Assembly (NCBI GenBank): GCA_963727525.1
Contig: CAVSGO010000007.1
Location: 256,001 to 320,000, forward strand
From: an uncultured bacterium
Lineage (GTDB): Bacteria; Krumholzibacteriota; Krumholzibacteriia; LZORAL124-64-63
DNA: 64,000 bases
Direction: 5' to 3'
Part shown: piece after piece, positions 17,338 to 57,069 of the stretch
Numbering within the stretch: position 1 is the stretch's first letter
How the letters are laid out: every line of letters begins with the position of its first letter
Program-made: the position numbers and the translations under genes
Notes under the pieces: generated by a model
The model's input: the letters and a program-made list of their open reading frames with translations, nothing else
Told to the model about the DNA's origin: nothing
Database searches by the model: none

Positions 17338-18348
17338 CTACAATCGCACCATGTAGCTCACGTGGACCGTGAGTACCGGTGACGACGGCAGATCCGTGTG
17401 GATCGTCAGCTCGCCCTTCATGCGGCCGTGATTGGCCTGCAACGTCGCGTCGTCCTCGGGCAGAGCGTTGCCCTCGATCACGGCCTGCCACTCGGTACCC
17501 GGAATGGAGTTCTTCACGGACGCCTTGAGTCCGGGGATGTCGATCTCCGCGCCGGTCAGGTTGAAGTGCGTGCCCTTGTCATAGGCCCCCACGCGAATCT
17601 GCGAACGCAGCGGTTGCCCGGCCTGAACGTAGTTGAAGTTCACGCGATCGCGGCCAAGGATGAGATCCTGGATCACCATGGCGCCGACCTCGAGCGTCAC
17701 GGTCGGCTCGTCCGCGAGGTTCGTGCCGAGGATCAGCGTGGTGCGCTTGCGCCCCGGCGGCGTGTCGGCGCGCAGCGTGAAATTCACCTTGCTGCGCTGC
17801 TTGTCGCCGTCGACGCCGTTCTTGATGTCCACGTCGACGAAGTCCGGCTTGTCCTTCACCGACATCTTCAGGGCCGGGACGTCCTCCGTCCAGAACGTCC
17901 ATTCCTTCGTGCTGGTGTTGCCCGACTTGGTGACCTCGAAGCCGAGCGAGCGGCCGGGAGGATCGTTGTAAAGCGGCACCTTCACGTCGGCGGTGATCAT
18001 CACGTCGACGTCGCCGAGCTTGGGGTCGTCGGAGAAGATGTTGATGAACTTGGTTTGCGGTCCCTGGAAACTCTTGCTGTTGAAATCGACGGCGATCGTG
18101 GTCGATTCCCCAGGGCCGAGCGTGTCCTTCGCCAGCTCGGCTACGGTGCAGCCGCACGTCGTCTCGACGTTGCGGATATTCAAAGGCGCGTCGCCTTCGT
18201 TGGCGATGGTCAGGGTCGCCTGTTTGGCCTCGTTCTGCTTCATGTCTCCAAAGTCGATATGCAATGGTTCCACCCGGATGACCGGAGCGGCGATGGCGGC
18301 TGCGGCCGTCGTGAGCGAGATGACCAGGGCGATGCTGAGGCTGCGCAT
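17338..18348 (-). CDS. Exported DUF1573 (Ig-like) domain protein
   Basis: Signal peptide; DFG..N.GDAPLNI..VETTCGCT..LGPGES. Confidence 0.8.
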   Translation of the reverse strand: MRSLSIALVISLTTAAAAIAAPVIRVEPLHIDFGDMKQNEAKQATLTIANEGDAPLNIRNVETTCGCTVAELAKDTLGPGESTTIAVDFNSKSFQGPQTKFINIFSDDPKLGDVDVMITADVKVPLYNDPPGRSLGFEVTKSGNTSTKEWTFWTEDVPALKMSVKDKPDFVDVDIKNGVDGDKQRSKVNFTLRADTPPGRKRTTLILGTNLADEPTVTLEVGAMVIQDLILGRDRVNFNYVQAGQPLRSQIRVGAYDKGTHFNLTGAEIDIPGLKASVKNSIPGTEWQAVIEGNALPEDDATLQANHGRMKGELTIHTDLPSSPVLTVHVSYMVRL

Positions 18349-23784: not shown

Positions 23785-25245
23785 TCAGGGCGCGTCGGCC
23801 ACGGCCCAGGACGTGCGGAAGGCCAGGCGCACGAGATCCGCATAGAGGGCGCCATCGAGCGTGACCGGTCGGTCGGCGGGCTGGTGCAGGTACGTGTAGC
23901 TATTCGTCGTCACCCAGTACAGCGTGCGCACGCCGAGATCGGCGAATGGTTGCGCGTCGGCGCCGCCCGATTTCCAGGTAGCCTTCACCATGCGGCGCGC
24001 ATGGGAGGCATCGAGTTCGCGTGCCAGACGCCAGAGTTCCGGCGCGCCGTCGCCGCCTCCCACCTTGATGCTGTCGCCATGGGCCACGCAATCCAGATTG
24101 AACATCGCTGTCGTGTGATCGAGCGCCACGAAGGGGTGCGCGGCGTGGAAGCGTGAACCCTCGAGGCCCGATTCCTCGCTCGCGAAGAGCACGAACACGA
24201 CGGTGCGCGCCGGCGGGCGGTCGGCCCGCGCGAAGGCCGCGGACAGGGCAAGCACGGCGGAGGCGCCCGAGGCATTGTCGTTGGCGCCGGGGAAGGTGAC
24301 GTCGGGCGACTGCCGGCCCACGTGATCGAGGTGGCCACCGATGACGAGGGCCTCGTCGCGGCGTATCGGGTCGCTGCCCGGTAACACGGCGACCACGTTC
24401 CAGGTGGGGTGTTGCGTTTCGTAGCGGGCCTGTACCGCCAGGTCGACGGATGCCGGGAGCGCGAAGGACTGTGGGCGGTGGTCGGCGTCGATCCGACGGC
24501 GCAGCCGGCGCGCGTCGCCGGCGCCGCCGAGCAACCGGTCGGCGACGGTCTCGCCAATCTCCAGGTGCGGGAAGTCCGGGTGGTGATCGCCGTCGCCGTG
24601 CAGCACGCTGCCGATGGGCACGGGCGGCGGCGCGTCGGCTGCACTCGGGGCGTCGACCCAGAGCAGGGCGACCGCGCCGTGCGCGATGGCGGTGGCCGCT
24701 CTGGCGCGGGGCGTGGCGCTCTGTGCGGACCATCCTGCGTCGTCCAGCGTCCAGTCGGGATTCCGCTTGAAACACAGGGCCACCTTGCCGCGGATATCGA
24801 CGCCGGCATAGTCGTCGAAACCGCGGTCGGCCTCGCTCAGCCCGTAGCCCACGAAGACCACCGGGGCTGCCACCGCGCCGCTGCCCGTGAATCCACGGCA
24901 GGTGAAATCGGGGCCGAGTGCGCAGGTCGTCCACGCACCGTCGTGGCAACGTACGCTCAGACGCGGCGTGCCCACGATCGCGTTGTACTCGATGGTGAGG
25001 GTTTGCAAGTATCCGTCGTCGCCCCCGGGTTGCAGACCGAGCGCAGCGAATCGATCGGCCGCCCAGCGCGCGGCGGCCAGGTAACCGTCCGATCCCGACA
25101 GGCGCCCGCCGTATTGCGGACCGGCGAGGTGCGTCACATCGGCCAGCAGTCCGTCGGCGGTGATGGCCGCGACGCCGGCATCCGGCGCCTGCGCGTGCGC
25201 GAGGTTCGCGACCATGAACAGCGTCAGGATGAGCCAGCAGCGCAT
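23785..25245 (-). CDS. Exported M28 peptidase with PA domain
   Basis: Signal peptide; GGHLDHVG, GANDNASG, SEESGL, NLDCV, HQPAD. Confidence 0.9.
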   Translation of the reverse strand: MRCWLILTLFMVANLAHAQAPDAGVAAITADGLLADVTHLAGPQYGGRLSGSDGYLAAARWAADRFAALGLQPGGDDGYLQTLTIEYNAIVGTPRLSVRCHDGAWTTCALGPDFTCRGFTGSGAVAAPVVFVGYGLSEADRGFDDYAGVDIRGKVALCFKRNPDWTLDDAGWSAQSATPRARAATAIAHGAVALLWVDAPSAADAPPPVPIGSVLHGDGDHHPDFPHLEIGETVADRLLGGAGDARRLRRRIDADHRPQSFALPASVDLAVQARYETQHPTWNVVAVLPGSDPIRRDEALVIGGHLDHVGRQSPDVTFPGANDNASGASAVLALSAAFARADRPPARTVVFVLFASEESGLEGSRFHAAHPFVALDHTTAMFNLDCVAHGDSIKVGGGDGAPELWRLARELDASHARRMVKATWKSGGADAQPFADLGVRTLYWVTTNSYTYLHQPADRPVTLDGALYADLVRLAFRTSWAVADAP

Positions 25246-25252
25246 CGCGTCT

Positions 25253-26641
25253 CTACTTCCAGTGCTCGGAGATGAAGGCATCCACCTCGGGGATGCCGCC
25301 CTGCATCACGAGATATCCGTTGTGGGGCTCGCGGTCGGTGATCTCACCACACACCGGCGTGAGCATGAGGCGCTCGACCTCGGCGTGGTCCTGGCTCTGG
25401 GCCAGGGCCCAGCCCAGCTTCACGTAGGCCACCTCGGGCAACATGTTGGCTGCGGGCACCACGCCCTTCTCCATGAGCTCGCGCCCGGTCTCGTAGACGT
25501 ACATCTGTACGTAGCCCCAGAGCGTCTGCACGGTCATGTAGACGTGCAGGCCCGCGTCACGCGCGCGCTCGAGCGCAGGGTACAGCGGTTTGTTCACGTG
25601 ACCGAGGCCGGTACCCGCGATGATGATGCCGCGATAGCCATTCGCGATCAGGGAGTCGATGATGTCGGGCTTCATGTTGGGATAGTAGTAGACGATGGCC
25701 ACGCGGTCGTCGAAAACGGCCTTCAGATCGACGTGGGTATCGTCGCGGCGATGGTGGTAGTCCTGGCGGAAGGGCGTCACGCCGTCGGCGTCGACCTTGC
25801 CGAGGGGCACGTCGCTCAGCGTGCGGAAGGTGGAACGATACGACGAGTGCATCTTGCGCACGCGGGTGCCCCGATGCAGCAGGCCGTACTGGTCGCTGGT
25901 GGGGCCGAACATGCACACCATGACCTCGGCGATGTCGCTCGTGGCCGCCGTGCGCGTGGCGTTGATCAGGTTGATCGCGGCGTCGGAGCTGGGCCGGTCG
26001 CTCGAGCGCTGGCTGCCCACCATCACGACCGGCACCGGCAGGTCCTGGAGCATGAACGTGAGCGCGGCGGCGGTGTGATGCATGGTATCGGTGCCATGGC
26101 CCACCACGATGCCGGCCACGCCCTTCTCGATCTCGCGGGCGATGGCCTCGGCCGTACCCATCCACTGCTCGGGCCCCATGTTCTCGCTGAAGACGCCGTA
26201 CAGTTTCTCGGTCTCCAGGTTGCAGACGTCCGCCAGCTCGGGCACCGAGCCGTACAACTCGCCGGGACTGAAGGCCGGAATCACGGCGCCGGTGCGGTAG
26301 TCGAGGCGGCTGGCGATGGTGCCGCCCGTGCCCAGGAGCTTCACACGTGGTTTCACCGGATCGTAGGGGAAGGCTTTTTCCGGGATCTGGTAATGAGCTT
26401 CCTTGCGACCATGCACCGTGATGCGCTGCACCGTATCGTGGCGCACGCCGATGTTGTAGCCGGTGTCGAGCTTCAAGACGATGTGATCAGCGTCGGCTGT
26501 CTCGCTGCGGGGCAGGATCAGACCGGTGAAGTCGCCTCGCGTCGTGTGCAGGGTGGCCAGGCTCCAGACCTTGGCGTCCTGCGACTCCAGCAGGTCGCGC
26601 GTGGGGCAGCGGTATCCGCGGTATGCGTCGTTCGTGCTCAC
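25253..26641 (-). CDS. gatD: Glu-tRNA(Gln) amidotransferase subunit D (archaeal type)
   Basis: GatD-specific N-domain PRSE..HIVLKLDTGYNIG; TGGTIASRLDYRTGAV, HGTDTM, GSQRSSDRPSSD, GTRVRKMHSS, MLPEVAYVKL. Confidence 0.93.
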   Translation of the reverse strand: MSTNDAYRGYRCPTRDLLESQDAKVWSLATLHTTRGDFTGLILPRSETADADHIVLKLDTGYNIGVRHDTVQRITVHGRKEAHYQIPEKAFPYDPVKPRVKLLGTGGTIASRLDYRTGAVIPAFSPGELYGSVPELADVCNLETEKLYGVFSENMGPEQWMGTAEAIAREIEKGVAGIVVGHGTDTMHHTAAALTFMLQDLPVPVVMVGSQRSSDRPSSDAAINLINATRTAATSDIAEVMVCMFGPTSDQYGLLHRGTRVRKMHSSYRSTFRTLSDVPLGKVDADGVTPFRQDYHHRRDDTHVDLKAVFDDRVAIVYYYPNMKPDIIDSLIANGYRGIIIAGTGLGHVNKPLYPALERARDAGLHVYMTVQTLWGYVQMYVYETGRELMEKGVVPAANMLPEVAYVKLGWALAQSQDHAEVERLMLTPVCGEITDREPHNGYLVMQGGIPEVDAFISEHWK

Positions 26642-28545
26642 GCGAGCGCCTCCTTCACCCAGGTGCTGACGGTATGGCCGGCCACGCGGCCGCGCAGGCG
26701 CGGCATGACGTGTCCCATCGCGAAGTTCAGGTGGGCGCCGGTGTCGCGCGGACCCGGCGGGAGAGTCTGCAGCGCAGCCGCCACGCCGGCGCGCGCCTCC
26801 GCCTCCGCCAGTGGCGCCAGGGGTTCATCGTCGGCATTGTACACGCCCTCGGGCAGCACGTCACCGCGGACGAGCCGTGCGACGACGCGACGCCACCAGT
26901 CGCCCGCCGCGCGCAGGCTGGGCGGGCGCGGGCAGGAGCGATCGAGAAGCAGCGAGGCCAGGCCGGTGGGCGTGAGCCGGCTGTCGTCGGGCAACGTGGC
27001 CACGAGGTCGAGGAAGAGGTCGTAGGCGAGATGCCGGCTCAGGCGCTCGGCGAGGTCAGGTCCCACGCCGAGGTCCTGCAGGCGCTCCTGCCGTTCCCAC
27101 GGCCGCTCGGGCAGCCTGGCGAACACGCGGTCGAGACGTTCGTCGTCGATGCGGATGGGTGGCAGATCGGTGTCGGGATACATGCGGTCGGCGCCGGGCA
27201 GGATACGCTCGAAACCGTTGGTACCGTCGTCGAGGGCCTGGCGCGTCTCGCCCGGCACACCGGTCACCGCGTCGCGGGCGCGGATCACGATCTCGCGCGC
27301 GGCCGTCTCGGCGTCGTGCCGGCGTCCCCAGACCACGAGGATGGGCGTGGCCGTGTCCACCTGGCAGGCCTTGGTGACCTTGTCCCACTCGCCGCTGCTG
27401 AACGTGGGGGCATCCTGGGAGGAGCAGGCCAGGTTCGGCAGGTCGTCGATGCAGGCGATCACGCGGATACGATCGCTGAATTCCTTGAGGAACGACGTGC
27501 GCGGCTGGGTCTGGCACGACATGAGGCCCGCGAAGCCCGGCAAGGGCACGGCAAGTACGGTGGCGCCCTTGTCCACCGCCTGGCGCACGTTCCGGAACTC
27601 CGTGCTGCGCACCGTGGTCGTCACGTCGACGGCTTTGTCCGCGATGCCCTCGGCGGTCACGCCGCGCAGCGCCAGCTCCTTCTGGATCGCCACCAGCGTG
27701 GTCTGGCGCAGACCCTCGTTGTGTACGAGACGGGGGATGTGGCGCAGGCTCGGCACGCCCTTGATCTCGATGCGCGTGCCGCCGGTCACCGACACGTTGA
27801 CGTCCTGGCGCGCGGCACCCGGTCCCGTGCGCACCAAACCGCTGACGCGCGCGAGCCAGCGCAGGATCTGTCCCACTTCCATCACCTCGTGGGGCGTCGT
27901 CATGTCCGGATCGGTGACAGTCTCGATGAGCGGCATGCCGAGGCGATCGGTACGGTAGGTGCGCAGGTGACCGCGGTCGCTCACCTCGCGGCAGCTATCC
28001 TCCTCGATCGAGATCTGACGGATGCGTACGGTGCGCCCCCGGTACGGGATGGCGCCGTCGGTGCCCAGGATCGCGGTGCGCTGGAAGCCGGTGGGGATGC
28101 TGCCGTCGAGGTACTGCTTCCGTGTGATGTGCACCTCGCTCACGATGTTGCAGCCGAGCAGACGCGCGACCGCGAAGGCGCGGTCGAGAGCCTCGGCATC
28201 GATCTCGAAGGGCGGTGCATCGTCCATCTCGTAGGTGCACACCGTCTCGTTGTTGAGCAGGTAGACGATGTCCTTGCGCGTCTTGAACTCCATGAGCGCG
28301 GTGCCGTCGTACTCGCCCATCTCCGAGAGCGTGGGCCGCATATGCCGTAGCACCTCGGCGTGGTGCTCATCGCTGTAGCGGCCGGCCGGGCAGCGGCAGA
28401 ACAGCTTGCGCCGGGTGAGCAACTGCTGGTGTATCTCGAGGCCGGACATCAGGCCGAGGGCGGCGTATCCCTCGCGGTCCAGCTCTCCGAAGAGCGGCAG
28501 GGGCCGCTGCAGCCAGGGATGGGTCAGGGCACGATGGTGGTCCAT
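26638..28545 (-). CDS. gatE: Glu-tRNA(Gln) amidotransferase subunit E (archaeal type)
   Basis: GLEIHQQL, KLFCRCP, RPTLSEMGE, DGSIPTGFQRT, EEDS, DRLGMPLIE, RQDVNVS, insertion domain, PGADRMYPDTD; start uncertain (up to 28572). Confidence 0.92.
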   Translation of the reverse strand: MDHHRALTHPWLQRPLPLFGELDREGYAALGLMSGLEIHQQLLTRRKLFCRCPAGRYSDEHHAEVLRHMRPTLSEMGEYDGTALMEFKTRKDIVYLLNNETVCTYEMDDAPPFEIDAEALDRAFAVARLLGCNIVSEVHITRKQYLDGSIPTGFQRTAILGTDGAIPYRGRTVRIRQISIEEDSCREVSDRGHLRTYRTDRLGMPLIETVTDPDMTTPHEVMEVGQILRWLARVSGLVRTGPGAARQDVNVSVTGGTRIEIKGVPSLRHIPRLVHNEGLRQTTLVAIQKELALRGVTAEGIADKAVDVTTTVRSTEFRNVRQAVDKGATVLAVPLPGFAGLMSCQTQPRTSFLKEFSDRIRVIACIDDLPNLACSSQDAPTFSSGEWDKVTKACQVDTATPILVVWGRRHDAETAAREIVIRARDAVTGVPGETRQALDDGTNGFERILPGADRMYPDTDLPPIRIDDERLDRVFARLPERPWERQERLQDLGVGPDLAERLSRHLAYDLFLDLVATLPDDSRLTPTGLASLLLDRSCPRPPSLRAAGDWWRRVVARLVRGDVLPEGVYNADDEPLAPLAEAEARAGVAAALQTLPPGPRDTGAHLNFAMGHVMPRLRGRVAGHTVSTWVKEALA

Positions 28546-28688
28546 GGACACCGCCGAGAGGCTAGGGGACACGAGATCGTGGGAGCCGGAACTTGCGGAC
28601 CAAATATAGATTGCAACGGTTTAGCGTCCAGGAAAAGCCGTGGGTAGGGCGCACCGTCGCCAAATTCCGCGTTTTTACTTTCATTTTT

Positions 28689-28706
28689 CTGTGAAAAGTG
28701 TAACAA
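28689..28706. promoter_or_regulatory. Putative Rex operator
   Basis: CTGTGAAAAGTGTAACAA versus consensus TTGTGAA-N4-TTCACAA (3 mismatches), just upstream of rex. Confidence 0.6.
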
Positions 28707-28767
28707 TGCGAGCCACATTGTAGGCAATGCTGTCCATTTCTCGAAGATGCTGCGCGGAGGTGATGGT

Positions 28768-29454
28768 GTGAGGCGAGTGCGACGCGGCTGCGACGTTCCC
28801 GAGGCGACCATCGGCCGGCTGCCCCTCTACCTGGAGAAGCTCAAGCTCTTGCAGGCCATCGGTGTGGAGGACGTCTCATCGCGCCAGCTCGCCGAGTCGC
28901 TCGACATCAAGGCGAGCCAGCTCCGCCATGATTTCCACTACTTCGGCGGCTTCAGTCGCCCCGGGCGGCCGTACCAGGTCAACAAGCTCGTCCCGGCGCT
29001 CGAGCAGATCATCGGCATCGATATCCCCGTGCCCACCGCCATCGTCGGCGCCGGCCACCTGGGCCAGGCCCTCGCGAATTACGCCAACCTCGATCTGCAG
29101 GGATTCCCCGTCCGGGGCATCTTCGACACCAATCCCAAGCTCGTCGGACTCGAGATCCGCGGCATGCCGATCCGCGATCTCGACGAGATGGAGACGGTGT
29201 GTCTGCAGGAGAAGATCAAGATCGGCGTCGTCACGGTGCCAGCCAGCGTCGCCCAGGCGACGGCCGATCGGCTCGTGGCCTGCGGCGTCATCGGCCTGTT
29301 CAACTTCGCGCCCACCGACCTGCGAGTCCCCCCCTACGTGGCGCTGCGCAACGAGCGCATCACCGTGGGGATCATGGCGCTGAGCTTCAAGGTGAAATGC
29401 CTGGCGCAGGCGCGCGCCGAGAGCGGCGAGGCTGTGAGCGACAGCGAGGCCTGA
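28768..29454 (+). CDS. rex: Redox-sensing transcriptional repressor Rex
   Basis: PEATIGRLPLY, VSSRQLA, YFG, VGAGHLGQAL, NFAP; GGAGG RBS before GTG. Confidence 0.93.
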   Translation: MRRVRRGCDVPEATIGRLPLYLEKLKLLQAIGVEDVSSRQLAESLDIKASQLRHDFHYFGGFSRPGRPYQVNKLVPALEQIIGIDIPVPTAIVGAGHLGQALANYANLDLQGFPVRGIFDTNPKLVGLEIRGMPIRDLDEMETVCLQEKIKIGVVTVPASVAQATADRLVACGVIGLFNFAPTDLRVPPYVALRNERITVGIMALSFKVKCLAQARAESGEAVSDSEA

Positions 29455-38419: not shown

Positions 38420-40303
38420 TCATGGCGCCGGCACCACGACGATAGGCGCGGCGTTCTGGTGCAGGGCCAGCGTGAGCATGGCGCGCAGTGCCGGGTAATC
38501 GTCAGGTTCCCAGCGGCCCGCGTCCAGCGAGAGCGAGCGGCGTACCGTCAAACCGTGCGCCGAACGCTCGCTGACCAGGTCGTACTTGCCGCGCGGACAG
38601 GTGGCTGATGCGCTGCGCGGCGCCGCGTCCACCATCAGGTTCTCGGGCAACCTGAGGGTTAGCGCGACCTCCTCGGCGTACGTCTCGTCGGCGAAGAGCG
38701 CGGTGGTACGCGCGGGTTGTTCGGCGTGGAATCCCGCCGGCAGGCGATCGAGTACGCCTGCCGGGGACAGCGGCAGGAGATAGATGGTCACGCCGCCGGT
38801 CGGTACCGCGAGGCGTGCGGCGCGGGCGTGCAGGCGCAGGTGGACCTCCCGGGGCGTGTCGCGACGCACGTCGAGGTCGGTGACCTCCGGTTCGACACCA
38901 AATCCGGCAGCCCAGGCGTGCGCGATTTCGTCGGCGGTTCCCAGACCCTCGCGCAGACCCCCAGTGAGCGTGAGGTCGATCTCGGCGGTCACGCCACCAT
39001 CGTCGCCCACGGTGATGGTGCCGGCAAGCCGACCGTGGGCACTGCCGGCGGGGACCGTCCACGTCCTGATGCCACCGCCTGCCTCGAGGAAGAGGCCCGT
39101 GCGTCCCGCGAGGTCGCAGGGGCCGGACCAGGGCGCATCCTTCTCGGGGGCGAGCCACCAGTTGTCCCCGTCCAGGGGAAAGACGAGGCGCGGGGTGACG
39201 AGCTGACTCAACGCGGCCACGTCCTTGGCCGGTTCGCGGGCCCGCGTGAAGAGGCCGAGCTCCGGCTGCAGGCCGGCCGCGCGCAGGAGCGCGAGCGCGA
39301 GGCACGCCTGCTCGATCGGCGTGGCGACAGCGGAGGCGTACACGTCGGCCACGGGGCGCGGCGCGCGCGACCACGTGCCCGTCGGCAACGCGATGCGGTG
39401 CACGCCCTCGTGCACGAGGGTGACGATGCGGCGCACCGTATCCTCTCTCGTGAGATCCTCACCCTCGGCGAGCCAGTCCCGCAGGTCGTCGCCGAGGTCG
39501 GCCGTGGCTGCCTCGACGGCGGTGCGCAGGGCGCCGGCAGCGTCGCGCCAGTCGTGCGTCCGGGCCACCACGATGCGCGCCAGCACGTCGCCGCGGGGGG
39601 CCTCGTCGCCCGTGGTCGGCACGGCGGGCAGATCGCGAAGATGCCAGACGCGGGAGCCGCCATCGTCGGACGTCGCCAGGCTCAGGCCTTCGCCATGCAG
39701 GAACGACGCCGCCACGTCGGCCGGCGTCACCCGCGCCGTGACCTTGCACACCGGCCAGCGGCCCTGCAACGCGACAACCGCCCCGGCGGGGCATGCCCCC
39801 GGGGCGCGGTCGCGGACCTCGTAGTCGAGATCGAGCACGCAACCCTCTTCGGTGCCCACGTGCGAGATCACCATCTCGCGCAGGTCGAGGAACGGTGCCG
39901 CCGCGGCGACCGCGTCGGGAGTGACCTCGTTGAAGGCATTGTCCGGGCTCGGGACCGCGGTGCCGTCGGCCATGAACGTGCGGCAGGTGTGGATGACGAG
40001 ATCCTGGCGGGTGCGGTCCCAGTCGACGCGCACGTCGCTGAGATTGCGCATTGCCCACTGCGTCTGCAGGCGGGTGACGACATGGTCGCGCCGCGTCAGC
40101 CGGCCGTCAGGCGCGAATGCGAGATCGATCTCGCGCCAGAGCACGACGGCGTCGGCGTCCGCGTAGGCGCTCGTCGGAGGCGCGGCAGCGATGAGGGCGG
40201 GCACGTCCAGGCCGGCGGCCAGCGCCGGTGCGCCGACGATGGGCACCAGCCAGAGGATCGCGAGGACGAGGATCAGGCAACGGAGGTCGCATCGCCGGGC
40301 CAT
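38420..40303 (-). CDS. Exported DUF3857/DUF3858 protein (degenerate transglutaminase-like partner)
   Basis: Signal peptide; ADAVVL, G.VLDLDYE; catalytic GxC motif absent. Confidence 0.7.
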   Translation of the reverse strand: MARRCDLRCLILVLAILWLVPIVGAPALAAGLDVPALIAAAPPTSAYADADAVVLWREIDLAFAPDGRLTRRDHVVTRLQTQWAMRNLSDVRVDWDRTRQDLVIHTCRTFMADGTAVPSPDNAFNEVTPDAVAAAAPFLDLREMVISHVGTEEGCVLDLDYEVRDRAPGACPAGAVVALQGRWPVCKVTARVTPADVAASFLHGEGLSLATSDDGGSRVWHLRDLPAVPTTGDEAPRGDVLARIVVARTHDWRDAAGALRTAVEAATADLGDDLRDWLAEGEDLTREDTVRRIVTLVHEGVHRIALPTGTWSRAPRPVADVYASAVATPIEQACLALALLRAAGLQPELGLFTRAREPAKDVAALSQLVTPRLVFPLDGDNWWLAPEKDAPWSGPCDLAGRTGLFLEAGGGIRTWTVPAGSAHGRLAGTITVGDDGGVTAEIDLTLTGGLREGLGTADEIAHAWAAGFGVEPEVTDLDVRRDTPREVHLRLHARAARLAVPTGGVTIYLLPLSPAGVLDRLPAGFHAEQPARTTALFADETYAEEVALTLRLPENLMVDAAPRSASATCPRGKYDLVSERSAHGLTVRRSLSLDAGRWEPDDYPALRAMLTLALHQNAAPIVVVPAP

Positions 40304-40304
40304 G

Positions 40305-42320
40305 TCAGGCCCCCTTTCGCCGCGCCACGAGCCGTGTCGAGGCGGCGTCCGCGAAGGCGGTCACGGCTGCGCGAAACAGGAGCCAGTCAGCCGCCGGGAC
40401 GACGCGCCGCGCCACCTGCATCGTGCCGCGCACACGCATCGTCTTGCCGTCGGGCTCGGCGCGCAGGTGGCAGCTCGCGATGTCGCCGGAGTGGCCCGCC
40501 AGCCACGTCGGGGCGCGGTCGGGGGCGTCGGTATCGGTCGTGAAGCCGCGCGGCACGCGAATGTCCTCATCGAGGGTGACGGCCTGGGCCATCCAGAGGA
40601 AGACCGGCGTGGTCCGCGTCTCGTCGTCGACGTCGGCGCGCGCGCCGGCCAGGCGCACGACGCCACCATAATCGGTCGTCGCCAGGGTCGCGGCCGGCGA
40701 ACACCAGGTGACCGTGCGGTCGCCGACGGTGGCGTACCCGGGCACGCGGACCTCGAGGTCCAGATCCATGGCGTGGTCGAAGTCGAGCGGATCACCGGCC
40801 CGCCACGACACCAGCTCGGCTCCGGCGCCGAGGCTGGCGCACCATGACCGTAGCCGCGACTCGACCTGATCGCGCGGCGTCTCGCCGATCGCGCGCCGCA
40901 GCCGCGTGTCGGCCGCGCCGTTGGGCCGCAGTGCCACGCGGGCGCGCAGCGTGCCGTCGGACGCGAGGTCACCGTGCAACGTCAGGGCCACCGCGTTGTC
41001 GTCGGCCGTGAAGGCGCGGATGCTCGCCAGTTCCTCGCCCGTGGGCGTGCCGACGACGTAATCCTGTTCGCCCTCCATGCGGGACCAGGCGAAGCGGCTG
41101 AAGGGGATCCAGGTGGGGTCGAGCATCTCCCACGTTCCGTCGGCCTTCTTCCAGGCGCCGACGCAGTGATTGAACTGGTCGGCGGGAGTGTGTTCCACGC
41201 GGGCGCCGGCCATGGTCATCGCTGGGTAGACCTCGTAGCCCGCCGTGCGGCACAGGGTGATCGCCATGCCGGCGATGTCCTTGCACACACCGCTGCGCTC
41301 GCGCAGGATCATGGGACCCGGGTGCAGGGTGTAGCCCTCGCCCTCGCCCATGTTCAGGCCGCAGTAGCGAATGTTCTGCGCGGCCCAGTGGTTGAGCGCG
41401 GCGACTTTCGCCTCGTCGGACTTCAGGCCGTGAGTAATGTCGGTGACGAGGGCGCGGATCTCCGGCGTGGCGTCGAATTGGCGGGCGTTGGCCTCCCAGA
41501 ACCAGCGGCTCTTCGCGGGCCAGTCGGCGACCGTGGTCATCACCACCTTCGGCGCCGTGTCCCGCGCGTTGGCGCCGCGCCACTCGTGGGGGAGCGGCGG
41601 ACAGTCCTGCTTCCAGAAGCGGTAAGTGAAGTGGTCGACGTCGAAGGTGGATTCGCTGAAGACCTCGCCGCCCACGACCTGGTACTGCAGCGGCCTCGTG
41701 CGCGGGAGGCGCACCGTCACCGTCTTCTCGCGCATGGGGACGTTGCTCTGGAAGAGCTGCACGTCGTACCAGTGGCCGCGCATGGGGGGGATGTAGCGGC
41801 TATCGTCATCGGCCTGGGATTCGCCCAGGTACGCGATCATGTACCCCTTGCGGTACGTCTCCAGTTCCACCGCATCGCCCACCGCCAGGCGCGGCAGCTG
41901 GAGCACCCGCATGCGCGCGCCCCAGTAGATCATGTGAGCCGGCTGCGACACGTCCACCGCCCGCGCCGGATCGACGTCTTCCCAGGTACCGTCGGCCCGG
42001 TGCACGCGCACCGTGCGGATCTCGATGAGCTGCGTCGCGGGGTCGTAGTCGAAGCGCTGGGTCCCTGTGGCGACGGCCCCGGCCCGGGTCAGGACCTTGA
42101 TCACCACGCGGTTGTCGACATGGGCCAGACCGCTCTCCTCGACGTCGCTCGTCGTGCGGTCGAGGACGGTGACGGTGGCGGCGTCCGGGTAGTCGTCGGT
42201 GGTCCCGGCTTCCGCGACGAGGGTGGCCACCGTGGCGGGGTCGAGCGGGAGGGCCCTCGCGGGCAACCCGCACAGCACGGCGAGCCCCGCGGCCGCGATG
42301 GTGTGGTGCAGCGAAACCAT
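40305..42320 (-). CDS. Exported DUF3857 + transglutaminase-like protein
   Basis: Signal peptide; NIRY, SGVCKD, FNHC, LDPT (Cys-His-Asp triad). Confidence 0.85.
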   Translation of the reverse strand: MVSLHHTIAAAGLAVLCGLPARALPLDPATVATLVAEAGTTDDYPDAATVTVLDRTTSDVEESGLAHVDNRVVIKVLTRAGAVATGTQRFDYDPATQLIEIRTVRVHRADGTWEDVDPARAVDVSQPAHMIYWGARMRVLQLPRLAVGDAVELETYRKGYMIAYLGESQADDDSRYIPPMRGHWYDVQLFQSNVPMREKTVTVRLPRTRPLQYQVVGGEVFSESTFDVDHFTYRFWKQDCPPLPHEWRGANARDTAPKVVMTTVADWPAKSRWFWEANARQFDATPEIRALVTDITHGLKSDEAKVAALNHWAAQNIRYCGLNMGEGEGYTLHPGPMILRERSGVCKDIAGMAITLCRTAGYEVYPAMTMAGARVEHTPADQFNHCVGAWKKADGTWEMLDPTWIPFSRFAWSRMEGEQDYVVGTPTGEELASIRAFTADDNAVALTLHGDLASDGTLRARVALRPNGAADTRLRRAIGETPRDQVESRLRSWCASLGAGAELVSWRAGDPLDFDHAMDLDLEVRVPGYATVGDRTVTWCSPAATLATTDYGGVVRLAGARADVDDETRTTPVFLWMAQAVTLDEDIRVPRGFTTDTDAPDRAPTWLAGHSGDIASCHLRAEPDGKTMRVRGTMQVARRVVPAADWLLFRAAVTAFADAASTRLVARRKGA

Positions 42321-42594: not shown

Positions 42595-44931
42595 ATGCAG
42601 CGACAGCGAATACTCGGCCGTGTGCATCTGGCTCTCATCCTCGCGGGCGTCTGGACCTGGTCGGCGGCCTCGGCACAGGCGCGCTGGGAGCCGCTCGCCG
42701 GCGGCGATGGCGCAAGCCGGCCGCATATCAGCGTCGTTGCGCAGACGGCCACGGCGGTCACGGTCGAAGTGACGGTGCCCGGTGTCGAGCTTCGCGACGC
42801 TGGCAGCGGCAGTGCGCGCTACGTCGAGGCTCTGGTGCCTGGTTGCGCCCCGCTGCAGGTGGCCGAGCATCCCGAGGTTCCATTGCTGCCCGTCTCGCTG
42901 GCGATCGCCGGGCAGGGCCACGTGGCCCTGGAGGTGATCGAGGTCGAGACACGCGTGCTGACGACGGCGCCGATCCTGCCGTCGCTCGGCCAGGTGCCCC
43001 GCGACATCGATCCCTCCTCGTTGACGCGGCGCGAGGGCGACGTGTACCGCGATGGTGGCATCTGGCCCCTGGCTGCAGCCACGCTCGGGCAGCCCTACAT
43101 CGTACGGGACGCGCGGGGCGTGACCGTACAGGTGGCTCCCGTACGCTGGGACGCGGTGCACGGCCAGATCATTGCCATGCGGCGCATCGTGCTGCGCGTG
43201 ACCACCCGTGGCGTCGACGGCGTGAACGCGCTGCCGGCCGCCAAGGCGGCGTCCGACGGGTTCTTCCGCAGCGTGACCTCGCGACTCTTCGCCAATGCTT
43301 CCGTCACGGCGCGCGACGATGGCAAGGCCCAGGGCGATCCCGATCCCACGGCCTCCGCGCGCATGATCGTGGTGTGTGGCGACGCGCTCGCGAGCGCCAC
43401 CCAGCCATTCGTCACCTGGAAGCGGCAGCGCGGCATGGACGTGCAGCTGGTGCGCATGAGCGACATCGGTGGCACGGCCGGCGACCTGTACTACGCGGTC
43501 AACCACTGGTTCACGGAGCCGGCCGGACTGGGCTACCTGGTGCTCGTCGGCGACGTCGAGCAGGTGCCGACTCAGACCGGGACCATCCAGGGCGCCGACG
43601 GTGATCAGATCTACGCCCTGCAGGCGGGCAGCGATCTCTTTCCGGATTTCCTCGTCTCGCGCATCTCGGCCCGCAACGCCACCGAGGTGCAGGTGCAGGT
43701 CGCCAAGATCGTCGCCTACGAACGCGATCCCGAGATCGGTGGCGACTGGTACGGCCGCGCCGTGGGTATTGCCAGCGATGAGGGCACCCCGGCCGATTAC
43801 GAGCGCGCCGACCTGCTGCGCGACGATCTGCTGGGTTACGGTTACAGCGACGTCAGCCGCATCTATCAGAGCTTCGGCGGCACCACGGCCCAGATCACGG
43901 CCGATGTGAATGCCGGCGTGGGCGTGATCAACTACATCGGCCATGGCGCGGCCGCCGGATGGCTGAGCGTGCCGTTCGGGGCGAGCCAGGTGCACGCCCT
44001 CGACAACGTGGGCAAGCTGCCCTGGATCATCGACGTGTCCTGCACCACGGGCGACTTCTCGCTGCCCGAGTGCTTCGCCGAGGCGTGGATGCGGTCCGGT
44101 ACGCCATCGGCGCCCACCGGTGCCGTGGGCATCGTGGCGGCGTCGGCCTCGGCGCCCTGGGTGCCGCCCTGCGTGATGCAGTCGGCGATGATCGACCGCC
44201 TCACGTCTTCGGCATCCACCGCCGGCGAATCGATGGAACTTGGCGCTCTGTTCGCCGTGGGCCTGGCCAAGGTTCTCACCGTCTATGACGGGCTGACCGT
44301 GGCGCAGCAGATGGTCGAGGAATACAACCTGCTGGGCGACTGCTCCCTGCAGCTGCGCACGCGGGCGCCGCAGACGCTCGCCGTGGACCGTCCGGCCACG
44401 CTGCTGCCCGGCGCCACGGCGCTGAGCGTGCGTGTCGTCGGCACGCTGTCGACCACGGTCACGCTGACGTCCGGCGCCGAACTGCTCGGCGTCGCGGCCA
44501 CCGGGACGGACGGCCGCGCCACTCTCACGCTGAGCCGTGCCATCTTGGAGGACGAGACGACCACGCTCACCGTCACCGGGGCCGAGTGTGCGCCTTACCT
44601 GGCGACGTTACCGACGGCGACGCAGACCGTGCCCGTCGACGACCTGTCGCCCGCCGTATCGCGTATCGTGGGCAACTACCCGAACCCCTGCAATCCGCAC
44701 ACCACAGTGGCGTTCGCCACGGCGGGGGTGGGCCAGGTGGATCTGCGTATCTATGACCTCCACGGCAGGCTCGTGAGTGAACTGGTGCACGAGACGCTAC
44801 CGGCGGGCGACCACGAGGTGGCCTGGAATGGTGCGGACACGACGGGGCGGCTCGTCGCCTCGGGCTCGTATCTCGCTCGACTCGTGGCCGGTGGCGAGAC
44901 GAGCGTCCGGTCGCTGATGCTCGTGCGCTGA
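42595..44931 (+). CDS. Gingipain-like C25 cysteine peptidase with FlgD-Ig C-terminal domain
   Basis: Propeptide; WKRQRG, LVLVGD, INYIGHG, DVSCTTG, YNLLGD; NYPNPCNP..WNG.D..G..VASGSY tail. Confidence 0.9.
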   Translation: MQRQRILGRVHLALILAGVWTWSAASAQARWEPLAGGDGASRPHISVVAQTATAVTVEVTVPGVELRDAGSGSARYVEALVPGCAPLQVAEHPEVPLLPVSLAIAGQGHVALEVIEVETRVLTTAPILPSLGQVPRDIDPSSLTRREGDVYRDGGIWPLAAATLGQPYIVRDARGVTVQVAPVRWDAVHGQIIAMRRIVLRVTTRGVDGVNALPAAKAASDGFFRSVTSRLFANASVTARDDGKAQGDPDPTASARMIVVCGDALASATQPFVTWKRQRGMDVQLVRMSDIGGTAGDLYYAVNHWFTEPAGLGYLVLVGDVEQVPTQTGTIQGADGDQIYALQAGSDLFPDFLVSRISARNATEVQVQVAKIVAYERDPEIGGDWYGRAVGIASDEGTPADYERADLLRDDLLGYGYSDVSRIYQSFGGTTAQITADVNAGVGVINYIGHGAAAGWLSVPFGASQVHALDNVGKLPWIIDVSCTTGDFSLPECFAEAWMRSGTPSAPTGAVGIVAASASAPWVPPCVMQSAMIDRLTSSASTAGESMELGALFAVGLAKVLTVYDGLTVAQQMVEEYNLLGDCSLQLRTRAPQTLAVDRPATLLPGATALSVRVVGTLSTTVTLTSGAELLGVAATGTDGRATLTLSRAILEDETTTLTVTGAECAPYLATLPTATQTVPVDDLSPAVSRIVGNYPNPCNPHTTVAFATAGVGQVDLRIYDLHGRLVSELVHETLPAGDHEVAWNGADTTGRLVASGSYLARLVAGGETSVRSLMLVR

Positions 44932-52662: not shown

Positions 52663-54666
52663 CTATTTGACGAGAGTCATCTTTCTCGTCAGCGTCTGCG
52701 CGTCCGTCGCCAGGCGATACACGTAGGTGCCAGAGGCGGCGGCAAGACCCGAGTCGGTCCGGCCGTCCCACACCACGGCGTGATCGCCCGATGCCATCGG
52801 CTCGTTGATCAGAGTGCGTACCATGTGGCCCTGCAGGTCGAAGACCTCCAGGCGCACCGGGCCGCGCTGGTCGAGCACGAAGGCGATCTTCGTGGACGGG
52901 TTGAAGGGGTTGGGCTGGTTCTGGGCGAGCGTCAGCGGGCGCGGCGCTTCGTCCTGGACCGGCGTCGAACCACCGGGGATCAACCAGTCGAGGCTGTTCT
53001 GCATGACGGCGTCGCGACTCGCGGCATCGGCGATGCCTTCCAGGCCGAAGCCGAGGAACACGATCTTGAAGCCGTTCATGTCGGTGCGCGAGCCGGCAAC
53101 GCGATCATTCGCGTAGTCGAAGATCGGCACGGCATCCGAGTAGTAGGTCTGGAACCAGTCGGGGTCGGACTGGTTGTTGGCGCCGTCGCCACCGGTGAGC
53201 TCGAAGGCGAGTCCGTCACCGATGGCATCGTCCGCCACACCCACGACCGAAGTACTGCCGGAGTTGCCACCGCGGAGGCGAATCCGGGTCTTGTTCTGGA
53301 ACCAGGTATTGAGGCCGTCGGCGTAGAGCGCCTCGGCGAGGTCCTGGCCCGACCAGAGCATGCGGCCGCCGGCGCCGAGGTAGGCGTCGATGGCGTCGCG
53401 GTCTTCGGCGTTGAAGCCGGGGTTCGCGTTGCCGCAGGCCCACACGACGGCGTCGAACATGCCGAGCGACGCCGCGTCGACCGTGGTCAGCGAACGGTTC
53501 CAGATCGTCACCGTCCGCCCGGCCGCGGTGATGGCCGGTTCGAAGTAGTCGGCGGCATAGCCCGCGTCGGCATCGTCGGCGATGAGCAGCACGTCGCGGC
53601 CGCCGGGCACCGCGAGGAAGCTCGCGGAGGCCACGGTCGCCTGGGCGCCCTGGCTATGCACGTTCAGCGTCACGGTGCCGTAGTCCGCGTCGGCCGCGTC
53701 CGTGGTCACCACGAGCTGCGTCGTGCCGAAGCTGGGGATCGGCACCGTCACGCTGGTGCCGTCCACACCATCGTGCGTGAAGTGGGCCGACCAGCCGGTC
53801 GGAAGCTGCGACGTGTCCAGCGTGATGTCGTAGACGTCGTCTTCCAGACCGAAGTTGGTGACGGTGGCCGTGCCGAAGACCAGCGGTCCGCCGGTCGCGA
53901 CGGCCTGCTGCTGTCCGTCAACGGCAACGCCGCCGGCGAACGGCAGGCTGCGGCTGTTGCCGCTGTTGTAGATGAACTTGTCGGTGTCGCGCTGTACCCA
54001 GACGATCGCTTGCATGTTCGCCGGGTTCCAGTCACCCATGACGAAGGGCAGCGTGACCGTCTGGATGTCGCCGATGTTCTGGGCCGTCAGCGGCGTGCCG
54101 GTGGCGTTGGGAAGCATGTCGCGCAGCACGTGTTCGAACGTGCGCGGTGCGTAGTAGAGGTCGCTCTCGACGATCGCGACACGCAGGTACGTGTTGGCGA
54201 TACTCGCAAGGTTCTCTCCGACGATCTCCACCTGCGCCGTCACGGAGGCGTTCCCGGGGGTGAAACTGTAGGCCTCCACCGTCACCGAGACCGGCGTGGT
54301 GTTTGTCCAGTGGTTCTCGATCACCGGGAAGTAGAGATGCCCGTCCATGGCGTCCGTACCGGCTCCGACGATGTGGTAGAACCCATCGAAGTAGAGGTCG
54401 GGGATGCCGCTCATGCTGTAATAGCTCTGACGCTGATCCGATTCCGGACAGCTCAGACCACCGCTCGATGCGAGGTAGTTGATGTAATTGAACTGGGTCG
54501 GTTGGTAGGTGTCCTCGCACACGGCGAGTCCCGCTTCAGCGTTGGGGCAGTACACTCACCAGGTGGCGGCGCCCAGCTCGGCCAAGACCGTGCGGGGCAC
54601 CTGGGCGTTGGCGACGGCGCTCGTCATCAAGACGCCGAACACCAGCAGCGACAGCATGCGCTTCAT
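52663..54666 (-). CDS. Secreted Omp28/thioredoxin-fold selenoprotein A (667 aa, Sec37) with FlgD-Ig C-terminal domain
   Basis: GGAGG RBS, ATG 54666, signal peptide, RTVLAELGAATW-TGA(54556-54558)-VYC in frame, GIPDLYFDG, HVLRDML, NQPNPFNP..RKMTLVK. Confidence 0.88.
54517..54555 (-). promoter_or_regulatory. SECIS-like hairpin A
   Basis: 39 nt after UGA; CGC-UGAA-GCG apical stem-loop 17 nt from the UGA, with an extended lower stem (folded by eye). Confidence 0.6.
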
Positions 54667-54811
54667 GGTTTTCCTCCGGAGGGTTGGCAGCTTCGAACAT
54701 GCCCGCGGGCATATGCTTCGACGATAGCACATGCTCCTCGAGTATACCAGTGTAACCTGATGGGAATTGATGTTTTAAAACGGTTCTCATGATCAGGATG
54801 CCTGCCTGTGG

Positions 54812-54841
54812 CACGGCCTCCCACCGGAGCGGGAGGCCGTG
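54812..54841 (-). terminator. Hairpin after selenoprotein B
   Basis: CACGGCCTCCC-N8-GGGAGGCCGTG; similar to the hairpin at 57011. Confidence 0.6.
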
Positions 54842-54860
54842 ACGTCGGCACGAGGATGCC

Positions 54861-56870
54861 CTATTTCACCAGGGTCATCTTCCTCGTCAGCGATTGCGTG
54901 TCGGTCTGCAGGCGGTACACATAGGTGCCGGAAGCGGCGCTTGGACCGTTATCGGTCCGGCCGTCCCACACCACGGTGTGGTCACCCGCGTCCATAGCTT
55001 CGCTGGCCAGCGTACGCACCAGGCGGCCCTGCAGGTCGAAGACCTCCAGCCGCACGGGACTCCGCTGGTCGAGAACGAAGGCGATCTTGGTCGACGGGTT
55101 GAAGGGATTGGGCTGGTTCTGGGCGAGCGCCAGGGGTTTCGGGGCCTGGTCCTCGACCGGCGTCGACGTGGTGCCGATCAGCCAGTCGAGGCTGCTGTCC
55201 ATGACGCTGTTGCGGTCCGCCTGGTCGGCGATGCCCTCGAGGCCGAAGGCCAGGAACACCAGCTTGTAGCCCGTGATCTCGATGCGGCTGCCTGCCAGCG
55301 CGCCGGTGCCATACTGGAATACCGGGATGGCGTCGGCGGTCAGTGTCTCGATCACGTCGGGGTCGCTCTGATTGTTGGCGCCGTCGCCGCCGTTCAGGGT
55401 GAACGCGAGCCCGTCGCCGATGGGATCGTCGGCCACGCCGGTGATGGCAAGGTTGCCGGAATTGCCGCTGACGACTCGGCAGCGGGTCTTGAATTGCATC
55501 CAGAGGTTGGCCGAGCCACCTTCGGCCTGCAGGTCCTGGGCGATGTCCTGACCCGTGATGAGGATCTTGCCGCCGGCCGTGAGGTAAGTGTCGATCGCGG
55601 CGCGATCGGCCGCCTCGAGACCGGGATTGGTGCCGCCGCAGGCCCACACGACCGCGTCGAAGTGACTCAGCACACTGCCGTCGAGCGCCGTCAGGTTGCG
55701 GTCCCACACGGAGTACGTGCGGGCCGACGCGCCGACCGCGGGACCGACGAAGTCGGTGGCGATGTTGTCCAGGCCGTCATCGGCGACCAGGAGCACGGTC
55801 TTGGTACCCGACACTGCGACGAAGTCGAGGGAGGCGACGTTGGAACCCGCTCCCTGGCTGGCGATGTTCAGCGTGACCTGTCCGCTTTGGTCGTCGGCCG
55901 CGTCGATCGTCACGACGAGGTCAAGGCTGTTGAAGCTGGCGAGCGGCAGCGTCATGCTCGTGGCGTCGGCGCCGTCGTGCGTGAAGTGCGCGTCCCAGCC
56001 GGCCGGAAGGCTGCCCAGTTCCAGGCTGATGTCGTAAACATCGTCCTCGAGGCCCAGGTTCGTGACCGTGGTGTTGCCGAAGGCTACCGGGCCGCCCTCG
56101 GAGACTGCCTGCTGCGCGCCATCGATGGCCACGCCGGCCGCGAAGGGCACCATGAGGCTGTTGCCGCTGTTGTAGATGAACTTGTCGGAGTCGCGCTGCA
56201 CCCAGACGATGATCTCCAGGTTCGCGCTGTTCCAGGCGCCCATGGTGAACGGCAGGGTGAACTCTTGCGTCTCGCCGCTGTTCTGGATGGTCAACGGCGT
56301 GCCCGTTGCGCTCGGCAGCATGTCGCGCAGTACGTGCTCGTACGTCGAACCGCCATACACGACATCGTTCTCGATGATCGCCGCGCGCACGTAGGTGTTC
56401 GCGGTGCTCGTGAGACTGCCGTCGATGAGTTCCACGCGCACGGTCGCGTACGCGTTGCCGGGCGCGAAGCTGAAGTCCGTCACGGCGACCGCAACGGGTG
56501 TGGAGTTGGTCCAGTGATCCTCGATGATCGGGACGTAGATGTGTCCGTCCTGGGCATCGGACCCGGCTCCGACAAGGTGGTAGTAGCCGTCGAAGAACAG
56601 GTCGGGAATGCCGCCCATCCCGTAATAGCTCATGCGCTGGTCCGATTCCGGGACGCTCAGGCCACCCGAGGAGGCCATGTAGACGATGTAGTTGAACTGT
56701 GTCGGATAGTAGGTGTCCCCGCACACGGCGAGGCCCGCTTCAGCGTTGGGGCAGTACACTCACCAGGTGGCTGCGCCGAGCTCGGCCAGCACCGTGCGTG
56801 GCACCTGGGCAGTAGCGACGGCACTGATCAGAAGCAGGCTGACCGCCACCAGCGATAGCAATCGCTTCAT
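54861..56870 (-). CDS. Secreted Omp28/thioredoxin-fold selenoprotein B (669 aa, Sec37) with FlgD-Ig C-terminal domain
   Basis: GGAGG RBS, ATG 56870, MKRLLSLVAVSLLLISAVATAQVPRTVLAELGAATW-TGA(56760-56762)-VYC in frame. Confidence 0.88.
56721..56759 (-). promoter_or_regulatory. SECIS-like hairpin B
   Basis: Differs from hairpin A at one of 39 nt; same UGAA loop. Confidence 0.6.
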
Positions 56871-57007
56871 GGTTTTCCTCCGGAGGTTGGCAGCTTTGAA
56901 CGATGCCCGTAGGCGTCTGGTGATTTTAGCATGATCTTTATGGAGAATCCAAGTTCAACTTTCGGTTGCTCAAATAAAGAAACAATACTCATTATCTTTT
57001 GACAACG

Positions 57008-57042
57008 AAAATCCGGCCCCCCACCAGAGTGGGAGGCCGGAT
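57008..57042 (-). terminator. Intrinsic terminator after selenoprotein C
   Basis: ATCCGGCC..CCCAC/GTGGG..GGCCGGAT stem followed by a U run on the minus strand. Confidence 0.75.
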
Positions 57043-57069
57043 CGTACGACAAGGGCTCGCAGCGTGTAT

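Follow-up and report, generated by a model that had tools for sequence, protein, structure and literature searches.

The gatE-gatD pair

Two adjacent genes, gatE and gatD, lie on the reverse strand of a 64,000-nucleotide stretch of DNA (hereafter the window: positions 256,001 to 320,000 of contig CAVSGO010000007.1, assembly GCA_963727525.1) from an uncultured bacterium of the Krumholzibacteriota. They encode the two subunits of GatDE, the tRNA-dependent amidotransferase that the literature, in the available sections of PMC9499178 and PMC2330236, treats as found only in archaea and as reading an A1-U72 base pair, just as a preliminary description of this DNA had stated. The longest open reading frame (ORF) of gatE begins with GTG (Table 1), and the probable start is the ATG at 28545, which gives a protein of 635 amino acids, the same as the form in the protein database, and coincides with the end coordinate of the preliminary description. 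The stop codon of gatE and the start codon of gatD overlap by 4 bases (...GCG TGA / GTG AGC...), an arrangement that probably couples their translation. The GC fraction of the pair is 0.69, compared with 0.63-0.73 over the window, and the fraction at third codon positions (GC3) is 0.89-0.90, compared with 0.79-0.92 in adjacent ORFs. What the preliminary description had said of coupling, of a GatD-type N-domain and of a composition like the surroundings was borne out by the sequence, by Pfam, and by GC and GC3, respectively.

GatE scores 479 bits against the NCBIfam equivalog NF003107 (cut-off 456) and 408.7 bits against TIGR00134 (cut-off 319.55), the latter match covering only positions 4-489 of a profile of 622. 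Models of GatB gave 131-139 bits against cut-offs of at least 315, and none passed; the best of them reached 139.3 (cut-off 338) and TIGR00133 130.8 (cut-off 314.8). The Pfam domain GatB_N was detected in GatE. Among proteins of solved structure, the closest sequence matches of both GatE and GatD are those of P. abyssi (1ZQ1) and Methanothermobacter (2D6F), and the HMMER alignment with P. abyssi GatE covers residues 32-525, insertion domain included. An AlphaFold model of GatE, with 57 sequences as input, has a pLDDT of 92.5, and a Foldseek search with it returned the GatE chains 1zq1_C and 2d6f_D as best matches (TM 0.77-0.82 by target length) and GatB chains next.

GatD scores 512.2 bits against TIGR02153 (cut-off 324) and 507 bits against NF003217 (cut-off 310), and it aligns with P. 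abyssi GatD (1zq1_A) over 404 residues at 407 bits. Pfam finds in it GatD_N (PF18195, residues 37-75, 46.6 bits), Asparaginase and Asparaginase_C, and the asparaginase motifs GTGGTIASR (with the Thr nucleophile), HGTDTM and RKMH (Thr-Asp and Lys) are kept. The protein has a complete asparaginase fold, as does type I L-asparaginase (AnsA), and passes the asparaginase subfamily model TIGR00519 as well (374.7 bits). It differs from AnsA in scoring higher on the GatD equivalogs, in having the GatD N-domain and in being coupled to gatE. The equivalog scores and the failure of the GatB models agree with the preliminary description that the proteins are GatE and GatD, not GatB and AnsA.

In M. thermautotrophicus GatE, the Mg2+ ligands are His15, Glu157 and Glu184, proved essential by mutation according to the available part of PMC2330236. 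They correspond, by alignment offset and not by structural superposition, to H48, E190 and E217 of the window protein, all three among the 49 columns without variation across 57 aligned GatE sequences. A count of conserved columns points the same way: of 83 columns conserved at 90% or better in 77 archaeal-side sequences, 66 are occupied by an unchanged residue in 90% or more of the bacterial-type clade (56 sequences). The other 17 fall below 90% retention, and 7 of these are at residues 349-386; within that region, positions 380-386 of the insertion domain, conserved in archaea, are degenerate in the bacterial clade. To judge from these columns, the catalytic cradle of GatE is intact as in archaea.

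The insertion domain and the tail, the two tRNA-binding domains of GatE, are less readily recognized. Pfam PF02938 (GAD) gives no match in the insertion domain of the window protein and PF02637 (GatB_Yqey) none in its tail, whereas archaeal GatE matches both. The insertion domain is nevertheless present, as had been claimed: besides being spanned by the P. abyssi alignment, it is modelled with a confident fold (pLDDT above 90) that has weak Foldseek matches to AspRS chains. The tail, the part that binds the D-loop in archaeal GatDE, is modelled as helical at a pLDDT of about 90, residues 541-560 excepted. Its motif MG..M...RG aligns with the P. abyssi tail in an HMMER stretch that is non-significant by itself, and G628 is almost invariant in the 57 sequences. 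Identity with the tails of archaeal GatE is 19-22%. The low similarity of the two domains at the level of Pfam would be compatible with a changed rule of tRNA recognition but gives no evidence for one. The divergence is nothing special, because the same domains are the least conserved among archaeal GatE too (archaeal-archaeal identity 0.33 for the insertion, 0.27 for the tail and 0.50 for the cradle).

Occurrence among bacteria

The source genome is 96.7% complete in 8 contigs, and gatED lies amid a contig of 2.37 Mb. The nearest homologues of its GatE, at 76-80% identity, come from sources named Krumholzibacteria, and rex, a gene encoding an M28 peptidase, and a gene encoding a SPOR protein flank gatED in related genomes also. 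The pair belongs to a bacterium, and its contig is no chimera; on this, the synteny and the phylum-wide counts given below accord with the preliminary description.

In a set of 41 relatives (the source genome included), GatE exceeded the cut-off in 30. A sample of the phylum (151 genomes at least 85% complete, matches accepted at E <= 1e-80) gave a GatE match in 116 genomes, 112 of them over the cut-off, in 58 of 69 genera, and no match in 35. The gene has been retained, then, across the phylum. Among the phylum matches listed, an in-frame stop is seen in one genome, G049, where the gatE match (C21:35615-37447) has a single in-frame TGA that might be a sequencing error, the mark of a pseudogene or a site of recoding.

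A scan of GTDB, one genome per species, produced at least 596 stretches encoding relatives of GatE. The best 80 of these were examined, and all belong to records with bacterial names, at 46-78% identity. Their labels are Krumholzibacteriota, Ignavibacteriota/Melioribacteraceae, Bacteroidota, Aminicenantes/Acidobacteriota, Gemmatimonadota, Calditrichota, Cloacimonadota, Myxococcota and others, some taken from automated bins and so perhaps imprecise. In 69 of the 80 loci gatD follows gatE, and no other conserved partner gene was found in the 80; PhoH/PIN (9 loci) and H+-pyrophosphatase (6 loci) were considered as partners and proved to be lineage-specific neighbours only. The pair is not the oddity of a single genome. 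By these matches it forms a large bacterial clade, common in several phyla.

Public annotation pipelines already label bacterial proteins of this clade GatE, so that the genes have database entries though perhaps no discussion in print; full-text searches, whose coverage left out most subscription journals, found no paper on bacterial GatDE.

Other routes to Gln-tRNA and Asn-tRNA

The preliminary description proposed that GatDE had either replaced the bacterial route to Gln-tRNA or been repurposed, and it named gatCAB, glnS and asnS as the genes to look for. Profile searches of the source genome found no GatB besides GatE itself and no GatA (the best amidase had 176 bits against a cut-off of 481), so GatCAB is indeed missing here. 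Glutaminyl-tRNA synthetase (GlnRS; 722.9 bits, cut-off 425.8, single copy) and asparaginyl-tRNA synthetase (AsnRS; 634 bits) are both present, which speaks against replacement. For glutamate and glutamine together there are two synthetases, one bacterial-type glutamyl-tRNA synthetase (GluRS) and one GlnRS, with no third.

The relatives tell the same story. GlnRS occurs in 28 of the 30 that bear GatE (and over cut-off in 34 of all 41), GatB in 17 of the 30 (25 of the 41), and AsnRS in all 41 (40 over cut-off). Five GatDE genomes of other phyla are similar, with GlnRS in 4 and GatB in 2. Since GlnRS accompanies GatE in 28 of 30 genomes and GatB does so in 17, GatDE is to be regarded as a second route and not as a replacement; it is not the only way to Gln-tRNAGln, and it does not simply take the place of GatCAB. 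GatB, GatE and AsnRS occur together in 17 of the 41 relatives, 16 of which also have GlnRS (G004, G006, G009, G010, G012, G013, G015, G022, G024, G026, G028-G031, G033 and G034; the one without is G036). Possession of all four is an unusual, fourfold redundancy for the formation of Gln-tRNA and Asn-tRNA, and members of this group often have direct and indirect routes side by side.

Two ideas as to why an indirect route might be needed were discarded. That the cell has no free glutamine is ruled out by two glutamine synthetase homologues (Gln-synt_C genes) and AsnB in the source genome, and that it has no AsnRS is ruled out by the presence of that enzyme in every relative.

tRNAs and GluRS

ARAGORN called 50 tRNA genes in the source genome. 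Both tRNAGln species, with anticodons CUG and UUG, have the bacterial pair U1-A72, and so do all 29 tRNAGln(CUG) genes called at 30 loci of the source genome and its relatives. The archaeal A1-U72, which the preliminary description had suggested looking for, is thus not what the host has. Archaeal GatDE reads A1-U72 and also the D-loop of tRNAGln, and D-loop size is the kind of feature by which amidotransferases reject tRNAGlu (available text of PMC9499178 and PMC2330236 for the first statement, and of PMC2330236 for the second). In the source genome the D-loops of tRNAGlu exceed that of tRNAGln(CUG) by 1-2 bases, which would still allow discrimination by the D-loop. The tRNAAsn(GUU) of this genome is likewise U1-A72.

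The two tRNAGln species differ elsewhere: tRNAGln(CUG) has C3-G70 and A73, and tRNAGln(UUG) has G3-C70 and G73. The possibility that tRNAGln(CUG) is a substrate of GatDE alone was considered and, on comparative grounds, rejected: G011 and G016, which lack both GatE and GatB, have this tRNA too, and its gene adjoins glnS in G006, G009, G012 and G014. A separate observation is that the genes for tRNAGln(CUG) and tRNAGlu(CUC) form a conserved tandem, which in the source genome lies outside the window (G000:C7:179391-179584), 2.2 kb downstream of gltX, and in the four relatives just named is a neighbour of glnS. A tRNAGlu(CUC) gene stands beside tRNAGln in 27 of the 30 loci (L105-L134), and most copies of both tRNAs of the tandem have the discriminator A73.

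The best match of the GluRS in the Protein Data Bank (PDB) is T. maritima GluRS2 in 3AL0, the entry for the glutamine transamidosome. At the position of T. thermophilus Arg358, which we take to be a mark of discriminating GluRS, the enzyme has Arg. Because the aligned M. tuberculosis GluRS has Arg at this position as well, the rule was set aside as non-diagnostic.

Origin of bacterial GatE

Trees of GatE were made with FastTree (137 rows) and as an IQ-TREE quick tree (82 rows, LG+C20 PMSF, three bacterial GatB as outgroup). One row of the FastTree run, L102_GatB, is a wrong-frame ORF with a branch of 4.6, and it was omitted from the later tree. In both trees all bacterial-labelled GatE fall in one fully supported clade (34 rows in IQ-TREE), which also takes in metagenome representatives that have no label and a single sequence with the label Thermoplasmata. 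The last, P0374 ('Thermoplasmata archaeon'), is encoded on a 5.16 Mb contig and has close relatives labelled Thermoplasmatales and Bacteroidetes; either its bin is mislabelled or the clade has an archaeal member.

The neighbour of the bacterial clade is a group of sequences named by NCBI as Heimdallarchaeota, Thorarchaeota and Asgard (SH-like approximate likelihood ratio test, SH-aLRT, 95), and in the quick tree with its GatB outgroup, bacterial GatE is nested among archaea. One might take this adjacency as proof of a transfer. However, a tree constrained to keep the 45 archaeal-side rows together is 49.3 log-likelihood units better, and the approximately unbiased (AU) test, with p-AU of 0.90 for the constrained tree and 0.10 for the other, rejects neither. 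In the constrained tree archaeal GatE as a whole forms the sister group of the bacterial clade, on a stem of only 0.025, with the Heimdall/Thor group branching first among archaea. Perhaps the outgroup, on its long branch, is drawn to the bacterial stem, which is long too. Without a root, the neighbourhood of the clade is stable; the position of the root is not. The AU test keeps both trees, and either a transfer from an Asgard-like donor or an ancient separate lineage may lie behind the bacterial clade. The old interdomain transfer of the preliminary description is in this sense only a possibility.

Spacer, neighbouring genes and other features

Upstream of gatE is rex, encoding a redox-sensing repressor and transcribed in the opposite direction (Table 1). 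Besides the window, 8 of the 88 loci compared have this divergent arrangement (L013, L015, L019 and L021-L025), all of Krumholzibacteria type. Within the spacer is TATATTTG, a promoter-like motif of the type TAnnTTTG, a consensus that we take to be a -7 promoter element of the Bacteroidota style, and the rex-gatE spacers of relatives have similar motifs in a corresponding position. The spacer also has a palindrome, TGTTACACTTTTCACA, with the pattern TGTTAC-N4-TTT(C/G)ACA. It resembles a Rex operator, given what we presume to be the consensus of the Rex box. Of the 8 other rex-gatE spacers, 5 have the pattern and 2 more have near variants. The palindrome is nearer to rex than to gatE, and gatED may be under redox control by Rex, or the candidate site may serve rex alone.

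Downstream, the gene for the M28-family peptidase shares 29 bases with the end of gatD and so may be co-transcribed with gatED, with no functional link between them being claimed. The same gene follows gatD in loci L019 and L020. Elsewhere in the window are genes for an extracytoplasmic function (ECF) sigma factor, a TonB-dependent receptor, an M1 peptidase with the tail of the type IX secretion system (T9SS), a C25 peptidase, a SPOR protein, Rex and cysteine synthase. As annotated, the neighbours are bacterial, diderm, housekeeping genes of the type of the Fibrobacteres-Chlorobi-Bacteroidetes (FCB) group. No biosynthetic cluster was seen among the neighbouring genes annotated.

Other features of the window and genome deserve mention in their own right. 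Tails of FlgD_ig or T9SS-like type end several proteins of the window besides those in Table 1. The genome has a tRNA-SeC gene (G000:C7:1642602-1642699), and one ORF of the window was compared with the OS_HP2 (seleno)protein family and fell short of the cut-off.

Table 1. Features of the gatE-gatD locus and of the rest of the window.
Feature	Position in window	Strand	Remarks
gatE	26638..28572	(-)	kinase/transamidase subunit; longest ORF 644 aa, from GTG at 28572
GatE insertion domain	27283..27672	(-)	residues ~301-430; AspRS/GAD-like, not in GatB
GatE tail	26641..27132	(-)	residues ~481-644; helical + putatively YqeY-like
GTGA overlap	26638..26641	(-)	gatE stop / gatD GTG start; direct sequence reading
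gatD	25253..26641	(-)	asparaginase-type glutaminase subunit; 462 aa
M28-family peptidase gene	23785..25281	(-)	Pfam Peptidase_M28, 117.2 bits
rex-gatE spacer	28573..28746
TATATTTG	28601..28608	(-)	TAnnTTTG-type, -7 promoter-like; 29-56 bases upstream of possible gatE starts
TGTTACACTTTTCACA	28690..28705	(.)	palindrome, Rex-operator-like
rex	28747..29454	(+)	redox-sensing repressor; NF003995, 208.8 bits (cut-off 126)
ORF compared with OS_HP2	17338..18348		56 bits (cut-off 100)
DUF3857 genes	38420..42320	(-)	two, adjacent; 627 and 671 aa, one with transglutaminase-like core
C25 (gingipain-family) peptidase gene	42595..44931	(+)	propeptide and FlgD_ig tail; farther upstream
Tandem paralogues	52663..58974	(-)	three, ~630 aa; Omp28-like + FlgD_ig

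Discussion

We consider it probable that the window encodes an intact, active, heterodimeric Glu-tRNAGln amidotransferase, adapted to bacterial tRNAGln and working beside GlnRS on Glu-tRNAGln supplied by the single GluRS. By homology to the archaeal enzyme, GatE would bind Glu-tRNAGln and phosphorylate the gamma-carboxyl group at the expense of ATP, with Mg2+; GatD would free ammonia from glutamine or asparagine; and the ammonia would pass to GatE to produce Gln-tRNAGln. The substrate would be a tRNAGln of the bacterial, U1-A72 type, mischarged by the sole, bacterial GluRS, and the enzyme might then serve beside GlnRS as a backup, as a correcting route or as a second route used under certain conditions. 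Such a scheme supposes that GluRS makes Glu-tRNAGln and that GatDE accepts U1-A72 tRNAGln. Given the U1-A72 of the host tRNAGln, the first-base-pair rule of this GatDE would have to differ from that of the archaeal enzymes characterized so far.

Several observations weigh against this account. The GatDE enzymes that have been characterized require A1-U72, a pair that the tRNAGln of the host does not have, and both tRNA-binding domains of the window GatE escape detection by Pfam, which leaves room for another substrate. The Arg kept at the Arg358 position of GluRS gives no sign of a non-discriminating enzyme. Nor is a metabolic need for the route visible in a genome that has AsnB and two glutamine synthetase homologues besides GlnRS and AsnRS. 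Finally, GatE and GatB are both absent from G011 (95% complete) and G016 (88% complete), although these carry the same tRNAGln(CUG), so the route is dispensable in the lineage.

If the redundancy with GlnRS is real, perhaps GatDE has been repurposed, as the preliminary description suggested, either to amidate some other (aminoacyl-)tRNA or to make Gln-tRNA for a non-ribosomal use. In favour of this are the lack of A1-U72 in the host tRNAGln, the matches of PF02938 and PF02637 to archaeal GatE and not to the bacterial clade, and the degeneration of positions 380-386 of the insertion, conserved in archaea. We nonetheless think repurposing unlikely: the catalytic cradle, with its essential residues, is kept as in archaea, no partner besides gatD is conserved in the best 80 loci, and the insertion and tail are the least conserved domains of archaeal GatE as well. 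Somewhat less likely still is a dual enzyme, a GatDE adapted to U1-A72 that makes Asn-tRNAAsn in addition and stands in for GatCAB. It would account for the absence of GatCAB from the source genome and from 13 of the 30 relatives bearing GatE, and tRNAAsn(GUU) does have the U1-A72 pair. On the other hand, a need for it is hard to see with AsnRS in 41 of 41 relatives and AsnB in the source genome, GatCAB is kept beside GatE in 17 of the 30 genomes, and archaeal GatDE refuses Asp-tRNAAsn (PMC2330236, in the sections available).

The patchy occurrence of GatE (no match in 10 of 41 relatives, with nothing but a contig-end fragment in one more, G002, and no match in 35 of 151 phylum genomes) and the seeming redundancy with GlnRS and AsnRS might also be what one would expect of a neutral passenger, a transferred operon with no role that is drifting toward loss. 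Such drift is difficult to reconcile with GatE over the cut-off in 112 of 151 genomes and matches in 58 of 69 genera, with 49 invariant columns, with a single in-frame stop (in G049) among the matches listed, and with the GTGA coupling and conserved upstream motifs, and we regard it as quite improbable. That the pair is an archaeal fragment, misassembled or misbinned, hardly deserves belief. Nothing was found in support of it, unless one counts the Thermoplasmata label of one clade member (P0374), and against it are the position of the genes amid a 2.37 Mb contig, GC and GC3 like those of the neighbours, the same flanking genes in relatives, and GatE in 116 of 151 phylum genomes.

A bolder extension of the preferred reading, that of an amidotransferase adapted to bacterial tRNAGln, would make bacterial GatDE no late import from archaea but an old branch, sister to all archaeal GatDE, with its own U1-A72 rule and serving whole bacterial phyla, possibly conditioned by Rex, as a second route beside GlnRS. 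We hold this to be doubtful, though less so than any of the alternatives just discussed. If the sister relationship were true, GatDE would either predate the split of the domains or have crossed between them very early.

GatDE has been used as a signature protein of archaea, a use that a large bacterial clade breaks. Moreover, the standard account of the failure of archaea to adopt GlnRS invokes the co-evolution of GatDE with A1-U72 tRNAGln (PMC9499178 and PMC2330236, as far as their available text goes). Both rules attached to the family are broken, because the bacterial clade coexists with GlnRS and with U1-A72 tRNAGln. The clade thereby offers natural material for asking how an amidotransferase changes its rule of tRNA identity, whether GlnRS and GatDE can share one pool of tRNAGln, and whether GatDE existed before the domains split. 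There is a practical side as well: in metabolic reconstruction of uncultured phyla of the FCB group, a match to GatDE should not be counted as archaeal contamination.

Comparison with known systems

The closest known system is archaeal GatDE (M. thermautotrophicus, 2D6F; P. abyssi, 1ZQ1). The bacterial pair shares with it the two-gene unit, the order of domains (N-domain and asparaginase in GatD; cradle, insertion and, probably, helical domain and tail in GatE), the Mg2+ ligands and the asparaginase motifs. It differs in its host, a bacterium with GlnRS, an enzyme that archaea are stated to lack in the available part of PMC9499178, and in the bacterial-type GluRS and U1-A72 tRNAGln that it would work with. 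The proteins differ too, in that the insertion and tail of the window GatE are below Pfam detection and the bacterial sequences form a separate, fully supported clade.

With bacterial GatCAB the pair shares the chemistry and a paralogous kinase subunit (GatB/GatE). GatCAB, moreover, reads U1-A72 in tRNAGln (PMC2330236, available sections), the very rule that bacterial GatDE would need. In contrast to GatCAB, the pair has an asparaginase homologue as its glutaminase in place of the amidase GatA; GatC is absent, and GatE has the insertion domain.

The coexistence of routes also has its precedent. Deinococcus, Thermus and Bdellovibrio, which have GlnRS and AsnRS, keep GatCAB as well, for tRNA-dependent synthesis of asparagine. 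They have direct and indirect routes in one cell (PMC4206432, in the part available), as do the bacteria described here. The difference is that the indirect enzyme is here GatDE, known for glutamine only, in a genome that has genes for the synthesis of free glutamine and asparagine.

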